A DNA stretch of 64,000 nt from Candidatus Babeliales bacterium (GTDB taxonomy: Bacteria; Babelota; Babeliae; Babelales; JACPOV01): NCBI GenBank assembly GCA_050250855.1, contig JBFWNW010000002.1:210719-274718 (forward strand), written 5' to 3'. The notes beneath the pieces were generated by a model. The model did not search any database. It was given only the letters and a program-made list of their open reading frames with translations, and was not told the DNA's origin. Positions 8,411 to 53,163 of this stretch are shown piece after piece. The position numbers and the translations under genes were made by a program. How positions within the stretch are numbered: position 1 is the stretch's first letter; the number at the start of each line of letters is the position of its first letter.

Positions 8411-8880
8411 CTCATGGCCCTTACCCAGGGCGGGGCCAGCCCCTTTTGCTTGTACAAAAGGGCTGGACAAAAATACACCAACATGCTGTTGGATCCGCTT
8501 GCTCGCTCAGACATCAACCACTCATCCTTCGGCTTCAGGTCGATGATTCGCTACCGGAGTGAATGTATAAAAAATAGTTTAATGCACCTTGACCCTTCGA
8601 TACAATTTCGATTTCATCGAAATCACTCCCTTCGACAAGCTCAGGACAGGCAGGGTGAGCGCACAGAACTATACTTAGTATCAAAAATAAGAAATTTACA
8701 TAAATGAATTCATTATAACGCGCTCATCTTGAGTGTTTTTCCGTTAGGAAAAATGTATCAGCCTGCCCGGCGAAGCTTTTTAGTCCGAAGAAGTTTTTAA
8801 CGAAGGCGGATTATGCGAAGCCTGGGAAAGATAAAGCGCTTGAAAAGAGGCTGGTCCCGTCCCGGAGAGGGACTGGTAAG
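8411..8880. repeat. Composite palindromic-repeat element (locus A) with imperfect ~37 bp inverted ends and nested REP-like units
   Basis: Left end ctcatggcccttacccagggcggggccagcccctttt resembles the reverse complement of 8843-8880 and of 17633-17668; 8731-8854 matches 17521-17644 (6 differences in ~124 bp) and, inverted, 12180-12262. Confidence 0.85.
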
Positions 8881-11014: not shown

Positions 11015-12178
11015 ATGATCGATTTTGTTGAAGAAAAAAAAGAGTTCAGCGCAGGAGTTTCTATTAAAGTTTTAGGAATTGGCGGTGCTGGCGGTAATAC
11101 CGTAAACAGTATGATTGATGCTGGTTTTGAAGGTATTGATTTTATTGTAGCAAATACTGATGCACAAGCATTACACTTATCAAAGGCACGCAATAAAATT
11201 CAGCTTGGCGTAAAATCAACCAAAGGCCTGGGTACTGGTGCAAATCCAGAACTGGGAAAACGAGCTGCAGAAGAAGATCTTGAAAAAGTAATGGAAGCTT
11301 TAGAAGATGCAGATATTGTATTTTTGACTGGCGGCATGGGCGGCGGCACAGGATCTGGCGCATTGCCCGTTGTAGCGCATGCACTTAAAGAAAAAGGTAT
11401 TTTATCAATTGCTGTTGTTACCAAGCCGTTTGTTTTTGAAGGAAAACGCCGTGCGCAAGTAGCAGAGAATTCTTTAGAACTTCTGAAAAAAGAAATTGAT
11501 ACGTTAATTATTATGCCGAATCAAAAACTACTTGATGTTGTTGATAAACATGTTTCTATGATTGATGCTTTTGCCATGATTAATGAAGTTTTAAATAGAT
11601 CCGTTAAAGGTATTGCTGATATTATTGCAAAAACAGGGCATATGAATGTTGATTTTGCAGACGTTCGCACTATCATGAAAGATATGGGACTTGCTGTTAT
11701 GGGAACGGGCAGAGCAAGCGGCGAAGACCGTGCAGAACTTGCTGCAATGGAAGCAATCGAATCGCCATTGCTTGAGAATATGAGCATTGCTGGAGCGCGT
11801 GGCGTATTGCTTAATATTACGGGCGGCAAAAACTTAGGGCTCCATGAAATCAGACAAGCGGCGAATATTATTTATGAACAAGCTGATGAAAACGCCAATA
11901 TTATTCTAGGTTCTGTTATTGATGATTCGTTAACTGATGAAGTAATTGTTACCGTTATTGCAACGGGCTTTGAATCAAAAAATGCTCAAGAATGCAAAAA
12001 ACAAGAAGAGCCAATGCCGGTTAAAGCTACTATTAAAGATGGTTCAATGCAGTATGAAAAAGTAATGCCAGACTATAAAAAAGAAGAAGCAAAGAAATAT
12101 GAATTGAGCTCTGTTGATGATCTTGATATTCCAACATTTATGCGTAAAAAAGAAGGCACAACAGGAAGAATTGACTAG
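11015..12178 (+). CDS. ftsZ: Cell division protein FtsZ
   Basis: GGAGGN, GGGTGSG, NVDFADV, C-terminal DLDIPTFMRK. Confidence 0.98.
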   Translation: MIDFVEEKKEFSAGVSIKVLGIGGAGGNTVNSMIDAGFEGIDFIVANTDAQALHLSKARNKIQLGVKSTKGLGTGANPELGKRAAEEDLEKVMEALEDADIVFLTGGMGGGTGSGALPVVAHALKEKGILSIAVVTKPFVFEGKRRAQVAENSLELLKKEIDTLIIMPNQKLLDVVDKHVSMIDAFAMINEVLNRSVKGIADIIAKTGHMNVDFADVRTIMKDMGLAVMGTGRASGEDRAELAAMEAIESPLLENMSIAGARGVLLNITGGKNLGLHEIRQAANIIYEQADENANIILGSVIDDSLTDEVIVTVIATGFESKNAQECKKQEEPMPVKATIKDGSMQYEKVMPDYKKEEAKKYELSSVDDLDIPTFMRKKEGTTGRID

Positions 12179-12179
12179 A

Positions 12180-12318
12180 GCTTTATCCTTCCCAGGCTTC
12201 GCATAATCCGCCTTCGTTAAAACTTCTTCGGACTAAAGAGCTTCGCCGGGCAAGCTGATACAATTTTCTACGCAAATCACTCAGGATGAGCGTATATTTT
12301 TATGCGCTCATCTTGTCT
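12180..12318. repeat. REP-like repeat (locus B) directly after the ftsZ stop
   Basis: Inverted copy of 8755-8837, followed by aaatcactcaggatgagcg and the start of a partner unit, gcgctcatcttg. Confidence 0.88.
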
Positions 12319-17380: not shown

Positions 17381-17668
17381 TGACTCTTCGATACAATTTA
17401 CTACGTAAATCTTTCAGAGTGAAAGCGGAATAAAGATAGAAATTATATTTATGCGCTCATCTTGCCTGTCCTGCCGTGCCCGACGTAGCTTTTATGCGAA
17501 GTCTGGGAGTTTATCGAAGGGAGTGTTTTTCCGCTAGGAAAAATGTATCAGCCTGCCCGGCGAAGCTCTTTAGTCCGAAGAAGTTTTAACGAAGGCGGAT
17601 TATGCGAAAGCCTGGGAAAGATAAAGCGCCTGAAAAGGGGCTGGCTCTGTTCCGAATAGGGCCATGAG
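17381..17668. repeat. Composite nested REP-like element (locus C) between convergent secA and galE
   Basis: Convergent pair of palindromic units; the right part matches locus A, with an extra doubly nested insert at 17464-17520. Confidence 0.88.
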
Positions 17669-18722: not shown

Positions 18723-18889
18723 GAGCTTATCGCAAAATTAAAAAACTTTTGCAGTTTTATACTTCGACTCGGGTAAAAACCCTCGCTCAGTATGACCGGG
18801 TTCTCTGTCTCCCTGCCTGTCCTGAGTATTCGCGAAGGGAGCGAGCAGAGTGAGTCGAAGGGTAAATTTATGATTTTTGCGATAAGCTC
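18723..18889. mobile_element. 167 bp MITE-like element (15 bp TIR, TTA direct repeats) carrying a REP-like doublet (locus D)
   Basis: TTA|GAGCTTATCGCAAAA ... TTTTGCGATAAGCTC|TTA; internal tacttcga...ctcagta unit and ccct[insert]gagc...gtcgaaggg unit. Confidence 0.8.
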
Positions 18890-22875: not shown

Positions 22876-24144
22876 CTATTGATTTAAAAGAGATTTATAC
22901 ATATTTTTTCTTGCTATTTTTTCAGTAAGGTGCTTATGCCACTCTGGGTCATTCTCTTCTTGTAGTTTCATTTTTTCTTCCCAAGTAAGAGCAGCTTGTA
23001 CCTTCATATCTTGAGTATTTGTATAGCCAGCCAAAGCTTTTTTGGTTTCTTCCAGCGTAACAAGAGAAGAAGGAGTGGTAGTTTTATTTTCTTCTTTTTC
23101 TTTATTCATAAGATATGCATATGCAGAAGGTTCTTCATGCTCTACTTGTTTTTCAACCTGTTGAGTAGAAACATAAATTCCTTTTTCTTCTTGCATTACT
23201 GGCTTTTTCCACCATTGGTAAGTCTTATAAAGACCATAACCAATAAGAGGTGTAGCAACAGCAGCTGCCACTGCATAAGGATGGCATGAAACAAAATTCA
23301 ATGCAGGAGTAGAAAGCTTAGTTGCTAATGCTGAAGCATTATTCCATGAAGCATTCTGCCACAGGTATGTTAACCCTGTTTTAGCGCTTGCTAGATTTTG
23401 TTTTAAGTTAATGCAACGAGCTAAAGAGTCTGGATTGTGTCTGCTAGCCCAAGTAAGTAATGATCCATAAGCCAAAGCAGTTGTTGTTACAACAGTATTT
23501 TCATTTTTACAAAAAGTAAGAATGCCATCTTTAACGCTGATTATGCCGTTTTTAACAACATCAGCAGCTTTTTTGATGTGGCCATTATTGTATACACAAT
23601 ATTCTACAACGCCCGCTGCAACAGCTACTGCTACAACGCCTGTCAAATAAGGGTGTTCTTGAATAGCTTCTAAAGAAAGCTTAACAATTTCATAACCCTT
23701 GTTTTTGAAGTTTGAAGTTATAGTATTAACTTGTTGGTTTGATGTAGATTGCTCAGTTGTAGTTTCAACAACATGTCCCAACTGATGTTCAGTTGAACCT
23801 GCGATGAATTCTGGCTCTATAGCTTGTGTAGTTGCTTCAGGTTTAACTTCACCAAAAGAAAACCAGTTAGATAGTTTTTTAGGCAAAGAAACTGAAGCTT
23901 GAGCTGTTTTTGCAGGTACCGCAGTATAACTCCAATTAGATTTTTTTGGAGTTTCAGCTGGTATAACAAATTTTGTACCAAAGTGTTTCTCTTGGTCCAT
24001 TTTGTACTGCTCAGCGGCCTGTGCCTTTAGATTTTCTAAATACTGAGAGAAAGTTCCTACCGGTGCATAATTAGGTTTTGCGCAGATAGGGCCCATTGCT
24101 AACGCAGCAACGGCTATAAGTGAAAAATAACGAATAGTATTCAT
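22876..24144 (-). CDS. Signal-peptide membrane protein with repeated hydrophobic segments
   Basis: First 18 aa identical to 24183..24584; HPY...YGLYKTYQW segment. Confidence 0.75.
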   Translation of the reverse strand: MNTIRYFSLIAVAALAMGPICAKPNYAPVGTFSQYLENLKAQAAEQYKMDQEKHFGTKFVIPAETPKKSNWSYTAVPAKTAQASVSLPKKLSNWFSFGEVKPEATTQAIEPEFIAGSTEHQLGHVVETTTEQSTSNQQVNTITSNFKNKGYEIVKLSLEAIQEHPYLTGVVAVAVAAGVVEYCVYNNGHIKKAADVVKNGIISVKDGILTFCKNENTVVTTTALAYGSLLTWASRHNPDSLARCINLKQNLASAKTGLTYLWQNASWNNASALATKLSTPALNFVSCHPYAVAAAVATPLIGYGLYKTYQWWKKPVMQEEKGIYVSTQQVEKQVEHEEPSAYAYLMNKEKEENKTTTPSSLVTLEETKKALAGYTNTQDMKVQAALTWEEKMKLQEENDPEWHKHLTEKIARKNMYKSLLNQ

Positions 24145-24146
24145 AA
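24090..24146 (-). repeat. 57 bp identical direct repeat (signal-peptide coding); second copy 24530-24586
   Basis: ggcccattgctaacgcagcaacggctataagtgaaaaataacgaatagtattcataa occurs twice. Confidence 0.92.
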
Positions 24147-24182
24147 GAATACACCTCCATGTTAAAAGATTCGTTTATCTAT

Positions 24183-24584
24183 TTATTTTCCGTTTTTACA
24201 ATATTGGTAAACTTTATAAAGACCATAAAAAATAACAGGAGTAGCAATTGCAGCTGCTGTTATGTAAGGATTATTCTTTATAAATTCTGGTGTCCAGCTA
24301 GAAGCAGTAGAATATACCGTTTCTTTACTCGGCAAAATACTGTTAAAGTAGTTATATCCCGGCACCATTTTTAAATAGTTCAGCTGTTTTTCAGTTGAAT
24401 CTATAGCCAATTGTGATTGTGCAGTTGATTCAGGTTGAATTTGACTGAGTGGTTTTATTCGTATATTAAAACGACTTCCATCATCATTAATAAATGTAGG
24501 ATATCTGGGCTCAGGAACAGCAAAAGATTGGCCCATTGCTAACGCAGCAACGGCTATAAGTGAAAAATAACGAATAGTATTCAT
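24183..24584 (-). CDS. Small paralog of 22876..24144 (signal peptide + C-terminal TM anchor)
   Basis: NPYITAAAIATPVIFYGLYKVYQY. Confidence 0.75.
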   Translation of the reverse strand: MNTIRYFSLIAVAALAMGQSFAVPEPRYPTFINDDGSRFNIRIKPLSQIQPESTAQSQLAIDSTEKQLNYLKMVPGYNYFNSILPSKETVYSTASSWTPEFIKNNPYITAAAIATPVIFYGLYKVYQYCKNGK

Positions 24585-24732
24585 AATTATACCTCCATAG
24601 ATTTACTTACTTCTATCCCTATTTATAACCATTTTATAGGGTAGATAGTACTCTCATTTAATTCCAGGTTCTCATATAAAAAAGGCTTTGTCAAAGGGGT
24701 TTGCATGTTTTTTATTCTAATATGCATTAAAA

Positions 24733-25448: not shown

Positions 25449-26102
25449 TTAATGGAGGAATAGTGCAAGTGGCTTAGCCAAAAATGACTGTAGCACGTAA
25501 AAAAGGGGGATTAGGGCTATAATTGAATCAAAACGATCTAGAAGGCCGCCATGGCCAGGTAGAAGGGTGCCCGCATCTTTGCGCTGAGCACAGCGTTTGA
25601 GCCACGATTCAAAGAGGTCGCCTCCTGTGGCCACGAGCGCAATCAGGATGCTCAGAGCAGCAAAATAAGCATTTGATAGAGCCCAAGGCTTGAATGCAAG
25701 AAGTACTATAAAAACAGCTATAAGCCCCCCTAAAAACCCTTCCCAGGTTTTTTTAGGGCTTAAAGAAGGAGCAAGAAGGTGCTTACCTATTAAATTTCCA
25801 ACCAGGTAGGCAGCAGTATCATGGCAAAAAGCTATAACAAAAAGAAGCTGTACCAGCTTGATATTTTGGTAGGCCATATAAGCAAGGAGCGCAAAGGGGA
25901 CGCCAAGGTAGCAGGTTGCAAGAATAAGGTAATTTTGTGCTGAACGTGAAAGCTGCGGCAATTCTGTGCAAAGGATAAGAAAAAGAATCGTAGCCAAAAG
26001 AGTATAAAAAATCCAAAAAGGAAGAAAAAAGAGTGATGCCAAAATGATGAAAGAAAAGAGAAGGCCTGTAATGCTCCGTGTTAAAAATTCTTGAAAGTTC
26101 AT
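25449..26102 (-). CDS. cdsA: Phosphatidate cytidylyltransferase
   Basis: DTAAY, SPKKTWEG, GDLFESWLKR, KDAG..LPGHGGLLDRFDS. Confidence 0.95.
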   Translation of the reverse strand: MNFQEFLTRSITGLLFSFIILASLFFLPFWIFYTLLATILFLILCTELPQLSRSAQNYLILATCYLGVPFALLAYMAYQNIKLVQLLFVIAFCHDTAAYLVGNLIGKHLLAPSLSPKKTWEGFLGGLIAVFIVLLAFKPWALSNAYFAALSILIALVATGGDLFESWLKRCAQRKDAGTLLPGHGGLLDRFDSIIALIPLFYVLQSFLAKPLALFLH

Positions 26103-26140: not shown

Positions 26141-26244
26141 TCCGTTCGCCCTGACCCCTCGTCAGCTTTGCAGCCGCTCGGGACTAAAGGCAATTCGAGG
26201 GGAGCATGCCCTGAGCTTGTCGAATGGGTCGAAGGGTGCGAACG
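26141..26244. repeat. REP-like unit with nested inserts, downstream flank of the GIY-YIG gene
   Basis: tccgttcgccctga[...]gtcgaagggtgcgaac is the inverted counterpart of 26537-26570. Confidence 0.85.
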
Positions 26245-26255
26245 ATTTATAATAT

Positions 26256-26531
26256 TTATTTGTTGCTTAACTCTATTATTTTAGTCCAATTGCCATTAAT
26301 TAAAGCGTTTTTCTTTTCTCGTGACCATTCTTTAATTTTTTGTTCAGCAATTAGTGCATCAACTCTTTCCTCAAATTTTTCTAAAAATACTAATTCTATA
26401 GGGAGGCGAGTTGATGTATAGCTTGCATATTTTTTATCATTATGTTCAGCTAATCTCTTTTCAATATTATCTGTATGCCCAGTATAATATGAGTTGTCTG
26501 AACATTTTAGTATATAAACATAAAAATTCAT
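26256..26531 (-). CDS. Small stand-alone GIY-YIG nuclease (UPF0213/SLX1-like)
   Basis: FYVYILKC-SDNSYYTGHT..IEKRLAEHN..YT..RLP..A..AE.KIK.WSREKK.ALI. Confidence 0.92.
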   Translation of the reverse strand: MNFYVYILKCSDNSYYTGHTDNIEKRLAEHNDKKYASYTSTRLPIELVFLEKFEERVDALIAEQKIKEWSREKKNALINGNWTKIIELSNK

Positions 26532-26536
26532 TATGA

Positions 26537-26630
26537 GTTCGTATCCTTCGACAAGCTCAGGACGAATGGAGTGAAGTGCTGAGCGAAGCGTTTACTACTG
26601 AGTATTAATCGAAGTATCAGGATGAACGGA
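26537..26630. repeat. REP-like units, upstream flank of the GIY-YIG gene
   Basis: gttcgtatccttcgacaagctcaggacgaatgga, then tactgagtattaatcgaagta and tcaggatgaacgga. Confidence 0.85.
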
Positions 26631-26636
26631 GAATAA

Positions 26637-26996
26637 TTAACCATACCTCTCCTGCTTAGTGAATGCATTAGGAATATACTGTAATGAATTTTCATTAACT
26701 GCTCCCTGAATGAGCGCAACATCAAAACGGAAGACTTTATTGGTAAGCTGCTTTGAGGCTATATAATGCTGTGCTGCTTTAATTATTTTTTTTTGTTTTC
26801 CATAAGTAATAACTTCAGAAAGATTATACTGATGTGTTGTGCGGGTTTTGACTTCTACAAAGATGACAAGATCTTCTTTCTTTGCAATAATATCAACTTC
26901 ACCATAGAATTTTTTATAGTTGCGTTCAAGAATGGTAAAGCCTTGTTTTTGTATAAACTGAGCAACCAGACTTTCTCCCTGTGTTCCTAAGTTCAT
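26637..26996 (-). CDS. yraN: YraN family (UPF0102) putative endonuclease
   Basis: G..GE, ILERNY, GEVDIIA, FVEVKTR, RFDV. Confidence 0.92.
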   Translation of the reverse strand: MNLGTQGESLVAQFIQKQGFTILERNYKKFYGEVDIIAKKEDLVIFVEVKTRTTHQYNLSEVITYGKQKKIIKAAQHYIASKQLTNKVFRFDVALIQGAVNENSLQYIPNAFTKQERYG

Positions 26997-28123: not shown

Positions 28124-29833
28124 ATGATAAAACATGATATTGGCGAACTTTTAGTAGCTCAGCAGAAAATAACACATGAGCAGCTTCAAGAGTGTTATGC
28201 ATATTGTAAGCAAACCGGTATTTCTTTAGCTGAGTGCTTGCGTGAGAAAAAATTAGTCTCAAATGAAGACATAGCACGCGCTTTTACTGAGCTTTTTTCA
28301 TTGCTGTATATTGAAAAAATTACTGAAAAAATGGCGGATCCCGCCTTGCTTGCTAAAGTTCCCCTACGTTTTTTGCGCCAAAATAGCATTATACCTATCA
28401 TGCTTGAAGGTCGCATTACCCTCGTTACCACCAATCCTCGCGCTTTTCAGCCCCTTGATGAACTTAATATGCTGCTTGGCTCTGATACTGATACTGCTGT
28501 TTCAACACAAGAAGTTATTATTGATGCAATAAATCGTTACTATCCGCTTGAAGGGACCAAGCAGATGATCGAGGAGCTTGAAGAAGAAAAGGGAGCTCCA
28601 GAAACTATTGAACTTGCTGAGATTGAAGAAAAAGATATTTTAGCAATGGCAGCAGAGGCGCCAATTATTAAATTGGTGAATCATATTTTGGTGCAAGCAG
28701 TAAAACGTGATGCCTCTGATATTCATATTGAACCGTATGAAAAAGAAGTACGCGTGCGTTATCGTATTGATGGTGTTATGTCTGAAGCGTTTAACCCGCC
28801 AAAACGTGTACAAGCGGCTCTTATTTCTCGTATCAAAATTATGGCAAATTTAAACATTGCAGAAAAACGTATTCCGCAAGATGGTCGTATAGAAATTAAA
28901 GTTGCTGACAAAGCATTTGATATTCGTGTTTCTGTATTGCCAACCACCTTTGGTGAGCGGGTAGTAATGCGTCTTTTAGATAAAACAAAAGCATTTAAAG
29001 AGATTAAAAATTTAGGATTCAGTCCTCGCGATCTAAAGACAGTGGAACAAAATATTGCACGCCCTAACGGTATAATTTTTGTTTCAGGTCCTACCGGTTC
29101 TGGTAAAACATCTACGCTTTATTCCATTTTAGTGCAACTTAATAAACCAGATGTAAATATCGTAACGGTTGAAGATCCGGTTGAGTATCAAATGAAGGGC
29201 ATCGGCCAAGTTCAGGTAAAAGAAAAAATAGGGCTTACCTTTGCAGCAGCATTACGTTCTATTTTGCGTCAAGACCCCGATATTATTATGATTGGTGAAA
29301 CGCGCGATCAAGAAACAGCACAAATTGCTATCCAAGCAGCACTTACCGGTCACTTGGTTTTAAGTACCATTCACACGAATAATGCGCCTGCTACCATAAC
29401 GCGTTTAATTGATATGGGTATAGAACCATTCTTAATTGCTTCATCAGTAGTATGTATCATTGCACAGCGTTTGATTCGTACCTTATGTCCTTTATGCAAA
29501 CAAGTATATAAACCAACGCAAGAAGAATTAAGAAGCATTGGTATTACTCAAAGAGAAGCAGAAGGTATTACGTTCTATAAAGCAGTTGGTTGTCCTGAAT
29601 GTGGCGGCACCGGTTATAAAGGCCGTATGGCAATTTTTGAAGTTATGGAAATGACGAATGATATCGCTAATCTTACTATGAGCAAAGCAGATGCTTCCGT
29701 TATAAGAAAACAGGCGTTAGCTGATGGCATGACGTTGTTAGTTGCTGATGGCTTACGTAAGATCAAAGAAGGTATTACCACTATTTCTGAAGTTGCACGT
29801 GTTGCAGCGGTTGAGGAAGAAGAGTTTTCATGA
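28124..29833 (+). CDS. gspE: Type II secretion / type IV pilus assembly ATPase (GspE/PilB)
   Basis: ASDIHIEP, PQDGRI, GPTGSGKT, TVEDPVE, LRQDPD, STIHTN, CxxC/CxxC. Confidence 0.92.
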   Translation: MIKHDIGELLVAQQKITHEQLQECYAYCKQTGISLAECLREKKLVSNEDIARAFTELFSLLYIEKITEKMADPALLAKVPLRFLRQNSIIPIMLEGRITLVTTNPRAFQPLDELNMLLGSDTDTAVSTQEVIIDAINRYYPLEGTKQMIEELEEEKGAPETIELAEIEEKDILAMAAEAPIIKLVNHILVQAVKRDASDIHIEPYEKEVRVRYRIDGVMSEAFNPPKRVQAALISRIKIMANLNIAEKRIPQDGRIEIKVADKAFDIRVSVLPTTFGERVVMRLLDKTKAFKEIKNLGFSPRDLKTVEQNIARPNGIIFVSGPTGSGKTSTLYSILVQLNKPDVNIVTVEDPVEYQMKGIGQVQVKEKIGLTFAAALRSILRQDPDIIMIGETRDQETAQIAIQAALTGHLVLSTIHTNNAPATITRLIDMGIEPFLIASSVVCIIAQRLIRTLCPLCKQVYKPTQEELRSIGITQREAEGITFYKAVGCPECGGTGYKGRMAIFEVMEMTNDIANLTMSKADASVIRKQALADGMTLLVADGLRKIKEGITTISEVARVAAVEEEEFS

Positions 29834-30339
29834 TGCGCTCTCAGGAGCAAGGATCATTATTACTTAACATAGCACTGGTGCTCAGTATACTTCTTGTGCT
29901 CATGAGTATAGCAATTCCTCGGTTGCCTTTTATGCAACGTATGGTACTTCGTTTAGAGCTTGAAAAGATGCACAGCTTTTTTCATTATATGCAGCAACGT
30001 GCACTTGCTTTACATGAAGATCTTACTATTACTTTTGATCCCATTCATAATAGGTATTATGCTGATACGTATAAAGAATCGTTAGCGCCCGGTGTTCAAT
30101 TTGGCGTACTTTTAGGGTCTTCAGGTCCTCCTTCAAAACCTTCTGGCCAAATTCTTTCTCCTATTACGTTTAAAAATAATAAAGCTGTTTTTTATAAAGA
30201 TGGCACGATTGCAGCGGGTACCGTGTATATAACTGATCATAGTAAACATTATTTATATGCACTCAGTAGCCCTGTTTCACAAATTTCTTATTTGCGTATG
30301 TATTCTTATGCTCGCAATCGCTGGATTCCTCTGCAATGA
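29830..30339 (+). CDS. GspH/FimT-like minor (pseudo)pilin with atypical cleavage motif
   Basis: QG|SLLLNIALVLSILLVLMSIAIP N-terminus; F..DG...AGT.YI near the C-terminus. Confidence 0.6.
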   Translation: MMRSQEQGSLLLNIALVLSILLVLMSIAIPRLPFMQRMVLRLELEKMHSFFHYMQQRALALHEDLTITFDPIHNRYYADTYKESLAPGVQFGVLLGSSGPPSKPSGQILSPITFKNNKAVFYKDGTIAAGTVYITDHSKHYLYALSSPVSQISYLRMYSYARNRWIPLQ

Positions 30340-53118: not shown

Positions 53119-53163
53119 TTTCGTATGCTTCGAGACGCTCGCTGAGCTCCTCAGCACGAACGG
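53119..53163. repeat. Single REP-like unit (locus G)
   Basis: ttcgtaTGCttcgagacgctcgctgagctcctcaGCAcgaacgg fits the NNCTTCGA...CTCAGNN consensus. Confidence 0.75.

Follow-up and report, generated by a model that had tools for sequence, protein, structure and literature searches.

Why a lone nuclease gene stands between two inverted hairpin-forming repeats is the question raised by a locus in the genome of a Candidatus Babeliales bacterium (GenBank assembly GCA_050250855.1). The gene encodes a GIY-YIG protein of 91 amino acids (aa) and lies between yraN and cdsA in a stretch of 64,000 nucleotides (nt) from contig JBFWNW010000002.1 (positions 210,719 to 274,718), which is called the window below and supplies the coordinates unless stated otherwise. 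The repeats are copies of a unit with the consensus 5'-CGYTCR-N3-YGAG-[apex]-CGAR-N3'-3', derived from the flanks of many loci. We consider it likely that the protein is an Ssn-like nuclease that reads this tagged hairpin in single-stranded DNA (ssDNA), and that its gene rides on a small cassette that is moved and duplicated together with the hairpins, with gene-less units and doublets as its non-autonomous relatives. Members of this protein clade are flanked on either side by the same unit in many bacterial phyla, and the gene and both units can be seen to duplicate together as one sharply bounded block.

The cassette spans approximately 490 bp at this locus, compared to 376 bp in a relative, and consists of the following parts:

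26256 to 26531, reverse strand: GIY-YIG nuclease gene, 91 aa, single-domain (Pfam PF01541, E 9.2e-19, residues 3-74)
26537 to 26570, reverse strand: gene-proximal upstream hairpin unit, N3 = TCC, 5-nt apex (26544-26568 by the relaxed definition given below)
26571 to 26631, reverse strand: distal upstream part, a degenerate second unit with the 5' tag CCGTTCATCCTGAT at its outer end
26142 to 26244, forward strand: downstream composite unit, inverted with respect to the upstream unit and a member of a 104-nt repeat family

On the gene strand the upstream unit reads CCATTCG-TCC-TGAG-CTTGT-CGAA-GGA-TA-CGAAC (also written CCATTCGTCC-TGAG-CTTGT-CGAA-GGATACGAAC), and 5 nt separate it (from 26537) from the ATG of the gene at 26529-26531. 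The distal upstream part has its 5' half at 26616-26628 with one mismatch, includes a small inner TAC-TGAG..CGAA-GTA core on the opposite strand, and is represented elsewhere by partial copies with 85-90% identity. The downstream unit has the form TCCGTTCGCCCTGA..(nested CCCCTCG..CGAGGGG hairpin)..CCTGAGCTTGTCGAA(TGGGTCGAA)GGGTGCGAACG, being broken by the nested second hairpin and by a 9-nt duplication. Seven further copies of this 104-nt composite repeat are present in the genome (92-98% identical over 93-104 nt), each with sharp ends and with AT-rich flanks that are unrelated to each other. The outer ends of the cassette are mirror images: TCCGTTCGCCCTGA is found at 26142, and the reverse-complement sequence CTCCGTTCATCCTGA ends at 26631. 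The original prediction for this DNA, made by a reader of its letters, had placed the right flank at 26537-26570, 5 nt from the start codon, and had taken the left flank as its inverted counterpart; both statements are borne out by the sequence. PF01541 is the only domain found in the protein, for which NCBIfam has no family, and residues Y6, Y16, R26, H30 and E63 are invariant in an alignment of 25 homologues.

The source genome (1,218,285 bases in 11 contigs, 36% G+C, 95.08% complete) is rich in these units. Exact 5' halves occur 129 times, whereas 20 shuffled genomes had 5.05 on average and at most 11, and for 117 of the 129 the exact N3 complement follows after CGAR within 110 nt, where 0.05 would be expected. 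The stem classes genome-wide are TGC (39), TGG (37), CCC (29), TCC (8), TAC (3) and TCT (1). A relaxed definition that requires both halves and allows one tag mismatch again yields 129 copies, of which 103 lie outside long open frames and 26 have their midpoint inside one, with a long open frame being a stop-free run of at least 120 codons; such frames make up 91% of the genome. A k-mer count also revealed that the commonest G+C-containing 12-mers of the genome derive from the hairpin units. Adjacent units form inverted pairs in 42 of 46 cases (29 tag-to-tag, with spacers mostly of 14-27 nt, and 13 tail-to-tail, with spacers of 23-60 nt), and thus the doublets that the original prediction had called frequent are the rule genome-wide. 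In the window, the 16-mer CTGAGCTTGTCGAAGG has four matches with up to three mismatches (0.21 expected; 0 of 100 shuffles reached four), and the 5' half-motif with up to one mismatch is not significantly enriched (13 versus 7.4; 6 of 100 shuffles reached 13). Because these window-only statistics are weak, the case for the unit rests on the genome-wide counts.

Structurally, the unit has a covarying three-base-pair stem and a covarying T-A/C-G pair. When units were selected on their 5' half only (265 occurrences in 108 loci), 216 had the exact N3 complement after CGAR within 110 nt, compared to 279 of 5,300 (5.3%) when N3 was swapped between units. The Y-R position of these 216 combines TGAG with CGAA in 197 cases and CGAG with CGAG in 16, with three mixed. 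For a set of 118 distinct units that share a 5-nt apex and were picked irrespective of N3', the proportion of paired cells is 97.3%, compared to 72.8% in shuffles, and changes on both sides affect 135 cells versus 48.0 +/- 4.6, a value reached by none of 500 shuffles. Sliding the partner by one column reduces pairing in this set to 69% or 43%. Both GA dinucleotides, that of YGAG and that of CGAR, are invariant among the 118 units, and their geometry suggests that they form tandem sheared G.A pairs between the Y-R and G-C pairs. The apex is free, ranging from 4-6 nt up to about 100 nt, and is often a hairpin of its own. We had expected CGYTCR to pair with a 3' CGAACG arm, and this candidate was rejected: at least five of six complementary bases are present in only 23 of the 118 cross-phylum units, versus 11% in tail-swapped controls, and the tag is therefore mostly unpaired outside the source genome.

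Homologues of the nuclease are widespread. Searches of species-representative genomes gave at least 605 matching stretches, of which 569 were confirmed and 80 kept. These are 45-63% identical and come from many phyla, with representatives in Burkholderiales, Sphingomonadales, Legionella, Coxiellaceae, Nitrospirota, Dehalococcoidia, Thermodesulfobacteriota, Campylobacterota, Acidobacteriota, Fibrobacterota, Cloacimonadota, Binatia and Dependentiae. The enrichment of units at the flanks of homologues, which the original prediction had anticipated, is strong: 72 of the 80 loci have a unit within about 200 nt of the gene, and the expected orientation is seen upstream at 51, downstream at 60 and on both sides at 44. 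Among 16 Babeliales loci, 12 have a unit, with nine upstream, ten downstream and seven on both sides in the expected orientation. Unit density is 4.67 per kb near the gene (200 in 42,812 nt) and 35-fold less, or 0.133 per kb (21 in 157,684 nt), at least 600 nt away at the same loci. The unit lies a median of 27 nt before the start of the match or 25.5 nt after its end, and over-long database open reading frames (ORFs) of the nuclease family read through the units (PFVLSLSKH, VRPEPVEG, LRQAQGER, FDKLRAQD). The flanking units are probably the cognate DNA hairpin of the GIY-YIG nuclease.

A protein tree built by a quick method (93 rows, 91 columns; L059 and L011, with in-frame stops, and L015, of 64 aa, were dropped) has stars on only 9 of its 90 inner branches; with this poor resolution it does not tell whether the Babeliales copies have one origin. 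One starred clade unites rows from Fibrobacterota, Campylobacterota, Thermodesulfobacteriota and Pseudomonadota, which hints at gene transfer.

The immediate neighbours of the gene provided the opportunity to compare the occupied site with the same site in relatives:

26637 to 26996, reverse strand: yraN/UPF0102, neighbour of the GIY-YIG gene
25449 to 26102, reverse strand: cdsA/CTP_transf_1, neighbour of the GIY-YIG gene

The three genes are co-directional, with the GIY-YIG gene between the other two, as originally described with correct coordinates. Four relatives from the same family preserve the order TPR gene-yraN-cdsA. In three related genera (G002, G003 and G004) only 17-50 nt separate yraN from cdsA, and the GIY-YIG gene is therefore an insertion. 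The empty junction that the original prediction proposed to look for is thus present in three of five relatives, and the cassette is not vertically fixed there. In a fourth relative, G005, cdsA is not adjacent to yraN and synteny is lost. The fifth, G001, belongs to the same genus and has 640 nt of other non-coding, repeat-bearing DNA in the gap, without a GIY-YIG gene. This gap (L031:860-1500) holds other palindromic repeats, for example GCTCTACGCTCGAACTCGC..., and the yraN-cdsA intergenic site seems to have served more than once as a landing place. At 67% identity, the closest homologue in G001 is at another locus, before a gene whose sequence reads like that of the tRNA(Ile)-lysidine synthase TilS.

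The block duplication is seen in G004, where two copies of the cassette are 90.7% identical over 376 nt. The match between them stops precisely where the outer ends of the 32-34-nt units lie, and their flanks are unrelated, which upholds the earlier claim that gene and inverted hairpin flanks constitute one cassette. Being patchy, multicopy and sharply bounded, the cassettes look like insertion sequences (IS). An active or recently active mobile element would be expected to leave such a pattern of occupied versus empty orthologous sites, duplication of a block with sharp ends at the hairpins, and gene-less partners sharing those ends. A further perfect inverted repeat of 55 nt, starting GCGCTCGTCCTG, has the L140 cassette (G004:C13) at its exact centre, so that the palindromes are nested with the gene at the apex.

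A second GIY-YIG copy in the source genome (C1:93266-93550, equivalent to L030:1494-1778) is 59% identical to the first and is flanked by TGG-class units. Gene-less tail-to-tail TGG doublets share both ends with this copy, the gene being replaced by an AT-rich spacer of 46-60 nt, and hence gene-less inverted doublets with the ends of a cassette exist, as had been proposed. The second copy lacks an in-frame ATG; its sole ATG (93266) is in the -1 frame across a CCTTTTTA run. This break could reflect a pseudogene with a 1-nt indel, a homopolymer assembly error, or a frameshift site. Another copy of the unit is located 130 nt downstream of this second gene. Among the homologues, L059:1501-1767, from a metagenome-assembled genome of Coxiellaceae, has an in-frame stop at codon 2, and L011:91-357 (G031) has a TAG stop in mid-gene. 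Both keep both flanking units, indicating that decaying copies retain their hairpins.

The pairing of a small GIY-YIG nuclease with inverted repeats is not new. The original prediction proposed a candidate REP (repetitive extragenic palindrome) system without a REP-associated tyrosine transposase (RAYT); the architecture, the analogy and the ssDNA cleavage have already been published for the Ssn family of site-specific ssDNA nucleases and their NTS/SRM hairpin repeats (Chenal et al., Nat Commun 2025, PMC11893778), where SRM stands for 'Ssn-related motifs'. The type member SsnA (NMV_0044) of Neisseria meningitidis is a single-domain protein of 94 aa assigned to cd10448 (GIY-YIG_unchar_3), which binds the NTS hairpin in ssDNA and cuts just upstream, leaving double-stranded DNA (dsDNA) and RNA untouched (PMC11893778). 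Four Ssn proteins cleave ssDNA beside their own hairpins, and not dsDNA or RNA, and those tested do not bind RNA (PMC11893778). SRMs flank 42% of SsnA homologues on both sides, and the authors noted that NTS-ssnA-NTS resembles an insertion sequence, drew the analogy to IS200/IS605 and REP/RAYT, and proposed domestication (PMC11893778). The role demonstrated for SsnA/NTS is in the control of natural transformation, not in mobility (PMC11893778).

The system described here shares with Ssn a GIY-YIG protein that has a single domain and about 91-94 aa (its catalytic residues are intact in our case), inverted hairpin repeats on both sides of the gene, and a conserved 5' tag that orients the repeats. 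In both systems the repeats are dispersed above chance, are mostly intergenic and often form inverted pairs, and several paralogues can share one genome, each with its own hairpin class. For example, the genome of Parerythrobacter lacustris (G042; L070, L117, L120, L124, L128, L132, L133) has at least six small GIY-YIG genes, one of the clade studied here and five of Ssn type. Each has its own hairpin class, which indicates that nuclease-hairpin pairs coexist without mixing.

However, the two systems differ in protein and repeat alike. The clade is 24-35% identical to NTS-flanked Ssn-type proteins, whereas these are 50-61% identical to each other, as compared in genomes that contain both types. 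In a 13-sequence database, the protein matches the NTS-flanked Ssn-type protein L125 with 28% identity (E 1.6e-9) and the YhbQ/UPF0213-type protein L126 with 31% identity (E 3e-13); the genome of L125 is listed in Supplementary Data 4 as holding a homologue that is more than 60% identical (PMC11893778). The tag is CGYTCR in the unit and CGTCA in NTS. The unit combines a 3-bp stem, a T-A pair, the proposed tandem G.A pairs, a G-C pair and an open-ended apex, unlike the 8-bp stem and 3-nt loop of NTS. The published SRM pattern, HGTCWYN(0-2)YYVSBRHN(0-5)WNVSBRGN(0-2)RNCYNB, matches the flanks of three of nine Ssn-type genes used as a positive control. It cannot see the hairpin class described here, and surveys based on it would therefore undercount such systems.

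The genome table of the same report includes several species of relevance here. Thalassolituus pacificus is scored 'no' by tblastn, 'yes' by cd10448 psiblast and 'no' for a CDD score over 100, and SRM enrichment is absent from this species (0.83-fold) and from Sphingobium subterraneum (1.03-fold) (PMC11893778). The clade studied here is present in both, and in T. pacificus the only small GIY-YIG genes are one of this clade and one of YhbQ type. Babela massiliensis, the sole Dependentiae genome covered, is given as having neither SRM nor ssnA homologue (PMC11893778). The motif strings of the unit are absent from the supplementary files of PMC11893778 other than the plasmid list, which was not searched. 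The literature searched likewise yielded no relevant prior description of the unit motif or of a GIY-YIG protein with REP, RAYT or MITEs (transposable elements of the miniature inverted-repeat kind), and no later extension of Ssn. The pairing of an Ssn-type nuclease with repeats is therefore known, and the differently built hairpin, the divergent protein and the patchy, multicopy cassettes are what sets this case apart. The Ssn report left open the role of Ssn and its repeats outside Neisseria and their mobility, and the yraN-cdsA locus bears on both. The setting is the reduced 1.2-Mb genome of a protist parasite, a bacterium of the amoeba-parasite type.

By analogy with SsnA (Chenal et al. 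2025), the nuclease would bind the folded unit in ssDNA, read the CGYTCR tag for orientation and nick the tag-bearing strand beside the hairpin. Because the flanking units are inverted with their tags outermost, such nicks would lie at both outer borders of the cassette, with one nick per strand. More speculatively, host replication or repair of the nicks, through gap repair or copy-choice from another copy, might give rise to further cassettes and gene-less units. In that case the nuclease would drive the process without amounting to a self-sufficient transposase, and we know of no strand-transfer activity in a hydrolytic GIY-YIG nuclease. The weakest part of this proposal is that the nuclease drives copying, presumably via nicks at the outer tags that the host repairs.

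Several observations weigh against a mobile cassette with an Ssn-like nuclease. By the definition used, no unit is present at 8 of the 80 broad loci and 4 of the 16 Babeliales loci. The link between gene and repeat is also loose among 41 Babeliales genomes, 15 of which have a close homologue (E < 1e-15), with 0-8 matches per genome, several of them with stop codons or at contig ends. When genomes with 40 or more hits and no fewer than three times as many as the reversed-pattern control are counted as repeat-rich (11 of 41), a close homologue is present in 8 of the 11 versus 7 of the 30 others, which speaks in favour of the link (Fisher p = 0.008, a value that overstates the association because kin genomes are not independent). 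Exceptions exist in both directions: those seven genomes have the gene but few units, G017 has 44 unit hits versus 8 in the control and no gene by protein or profile query (89% complete), G006 is repeat-rich with only weak gene matches, and G019 has only a divergent relative. In nearest-neighbour folding the flanking DNA is only weakly better than shuffles (z -0.63 to -2.57), and with such weak folding energies the structural case rests on covariation.

Further points concern function and transposition. With identities of 24-35% to Ssn-type proteins, and YhbQ-type proteins about as close, function is transferred by analogy, and ssDNA cleavage by this clade would follow from the Ssn precedent. 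The SRM pattern has no match in the genome (0.95 in shuffles) or in the 118 units, and the single match among 96 gene neighbourhoods of the clade is a true NTS-like repeat. Finally, neither a target-site duplication nor a conserved target was found among the eight copies of the 104-nt unit and the two G004 cassettes, and hence no transposition chemistry is indicated.

The strongest competing explanation, although we regard it as rather unlikely, is a domesticated host function without mobility, in which the nuclease cuts unit-bearing ssDNA and the units spread by some other route. It might limit or steer recombination of incoming DNA, as SsnA/NTS does in Neisseria meningitidis, or resolve hairpins at replication forks. 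Modulation of natural transformation is the sole function experimentally established for any Ssn (PMC11893778), the units are strongly intergenic, and 1.6 kb away (28124-30339) the translations, judged by eye, suggest an ORF for a PilB/GspE-like ATPase and a possible pseudopilin ORF. However, the gene is patchy in Babeliales, with 0-8 copies that occupy different loci in close relatives and include fragments and copies with stop codons. In addition, relatives lack the cassette at the orthologous site, duplication affects gene and units as one block, and starred clades of the protein tree mix phyla. A selfish element fits this patchiness, the empty sites, the block duplication and the mixed-phylum clades better than a conserved host gene does.

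Less probable still is a homing-type parasite, in which the units spread by replication slippage or another enzyme and the gene copies itself into the centres of inverted doublets. Such an arrangement would account for the gene always lying between 3'-facing units, as in the gene-less +- doublets, for the G004 copy centred in a further outer palindrome, and for the many units (44 versus 8 in the control) of G017, where no gene was detected. It does not explain why the same protein clade and the same unit sequence occur together across phyla, and no gene-free allele of an occupied doublet was found. Moreover, the two flanks of a gene share their stem class at 35 of 51 loci, which argues that gene and units travel together.

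It is scarcely credible that the flanks act as RNA, with leader and trailer hairpins for the nuclease mRNA and dispersed copies serving as terminators or stabilisers like classical REPs, since the hairpin 5 nt from the ATG, the resemblance of the 3' arm CGAAGGA to a ribosome-binding site and the frequency of tandem G.A pairs in RNA motifs are set against units that occur in both orientations relative to neighbouring genes, mostly as inverted doublets, that are not followed by a terminator-like T-run, and whose flanks at the locus have no Rfam family at gathering score, with chance-level matches at E < 1 around it. The Ssn proteins tested likewise showed no RNA binding in the published assays cited here (PMC11893778). 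Only two tRNAs in the window pass the Rfam gathering score, and the silence of Rfam at the locus indicates that the flanks are not a catalogued RNA. A scan for promoters and terminators did not exceed chance expectation, and the units do not resemble terminators. For CTGAnGA...GAA, a hammerhead-like reading made by eye was dropped because the required helices do not follow the core and Rfam is silent.

The cassette borne by an Ssn-like nuclease also permits a bolder version, which is possible but doubtful. The clade might be a separate family of hairpin-guided ssDNA nucleases, sister to Ssn and UPF0213, with the signature YYTGHTDN..KR..EH...YT..RLP...IKxWSRxKK, that reads a 6-nt tag and a 3-bp stem closed by tandem G.A; the 376-490-bp cassette would then be autonomous, moving between phyla and seeding REPIN-like doublets. 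If this is true, few known self-propagating DNA elements would be smaller than the cassette, which would depend on a hydrolytic nuclease and host repair and do without a transposase. In tool-making, a new type of specificity would be added to the proposed ssDNA-cutting toolbox by a nuclease that recognises a tag and a tandem-G.A hairpin with a free apex.

Comparison with other known systems places the cassette among several without matching any. Like REP/REPIN-RAYT systems, it has a nuclease gene between inverted palindromic repeats, gene-less inverted doublets, and intergenic mosaics similar to bacterial interspersed mosaic elements (BIMEs). Unlike REP/RAYT, where the gene encodes an HUH Y1 TnpA-REP, the flanked gene here is GIY-YIG, and a search for PF01797 (Y1_Tnp) found no Y1/RAYT transposase in the genome (95.08% complete), in agreement with the earlier non-RAYT assignment. 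GIY-YIG chemistry is hydrolytic and proceeds without a covalent tyrosine intermediate, unlike that of the HUH Y1 enzymes of RAYT. RAYT genes are also described, in the sources drawn on here, as single-copy and vertically inherited, whereas the GIY-YIG gene is patchy and multicopy.

The cassette resembles IS200/IS605 elements and MITEs in its very small size, in its hairpin-forming ends, which are probably recognised as ssDNA, and in having autonomous and gene-less partners with identical ends. It differs from IS and MITEs in encoding no transposase of a known class (only the GIY-YIG domain) and in showing no target-site duplication or fixed target. Its ends are inverted, unlike those of IS200/IS605, which are asymmetric and on one strand. 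GIY-YIG homing endonucleases such as I-TevI and Seg reside in intron or phage DNA, whereas this gene has a chromosomal intergenic context and its nuclease domain fills the 91 aa, leaving no separate DNA-binding domain. The closest solved structures by profile are of UPF0213/YhbQ type, PDB 1zg2 (BH0048, E 4.7e-22) and 1ywl (EF2693, E 2.5e-18), and the depositors' molecule names for both indicate no function. Proteins of this type have the same size and a single domain, but the example L126 is about 31% identical and its gene flanks carry no unit-like repeats.

Gene-less units are also present elsewhere in the window:

53126 to 53162, reverse strand: gene-less unit, clean, N3 = TGC, 17-nt apex
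18760 to 18798, reverse strand: gene-less unit, N3 = TAC, 19-nt apex, one 5'-tag mismatch
8629 to 8733, no strand assigned: degenerate units, a core 16-mer and an isolated 5' half
12178 to 12310, no strand assigned: inverted doublet of a long-apex minus-strand unit and a degenerate plus-strand 5' half

Recurrence without the gene had been proposed at 8.6, 12.2, 17.4, 18.8 and 53.1 kb, and it stands for the last two, whereas the first three are partly or wholly degenerate. At 8629-8644 there is an exact core, CCTTCGACAAGCTCAG, without a proper tag, and at 8721-8733 an exact 5' half, CGCTCATCTTGAG, without a matching 3' half. The long-apex unit at 12.2 kb has an exact 5' half at 12280-12292 and a 3' half with one mismatch, and an 11-nt AT spacer separates it from the degenerate 5' half. 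At 17.4 kb, degenerate unit copies are intermixed with another repeat family. This other mosaic family is found beside degenerate units at 8706-8871, 12177-12268 and 17439-17661, and consists of 50-71-nt segments with 94-97% identity in direct and inverted copies, resembling a BIME-type mosaic.

A second, unrelated repeat of the genome, which includes TGCCATCTGGTGACCATGCTACTGA and CCTGATGCAAGCTTGGTGCCATCTGG, approximately matches the units in abundance, and a whole-genome k-mer count gave 20-34 copies of its 16-mers. At 22876-24592, two neighbouring ORFs (422 and 133 aa) start with the identical signal-like peptide MNTIRYFSLIAVAALAMG. Their 5' ends share 63 nt with 97% identity (24090-24152 and 24530-24592), and a 79-nt repeat is common to their 3' parts.

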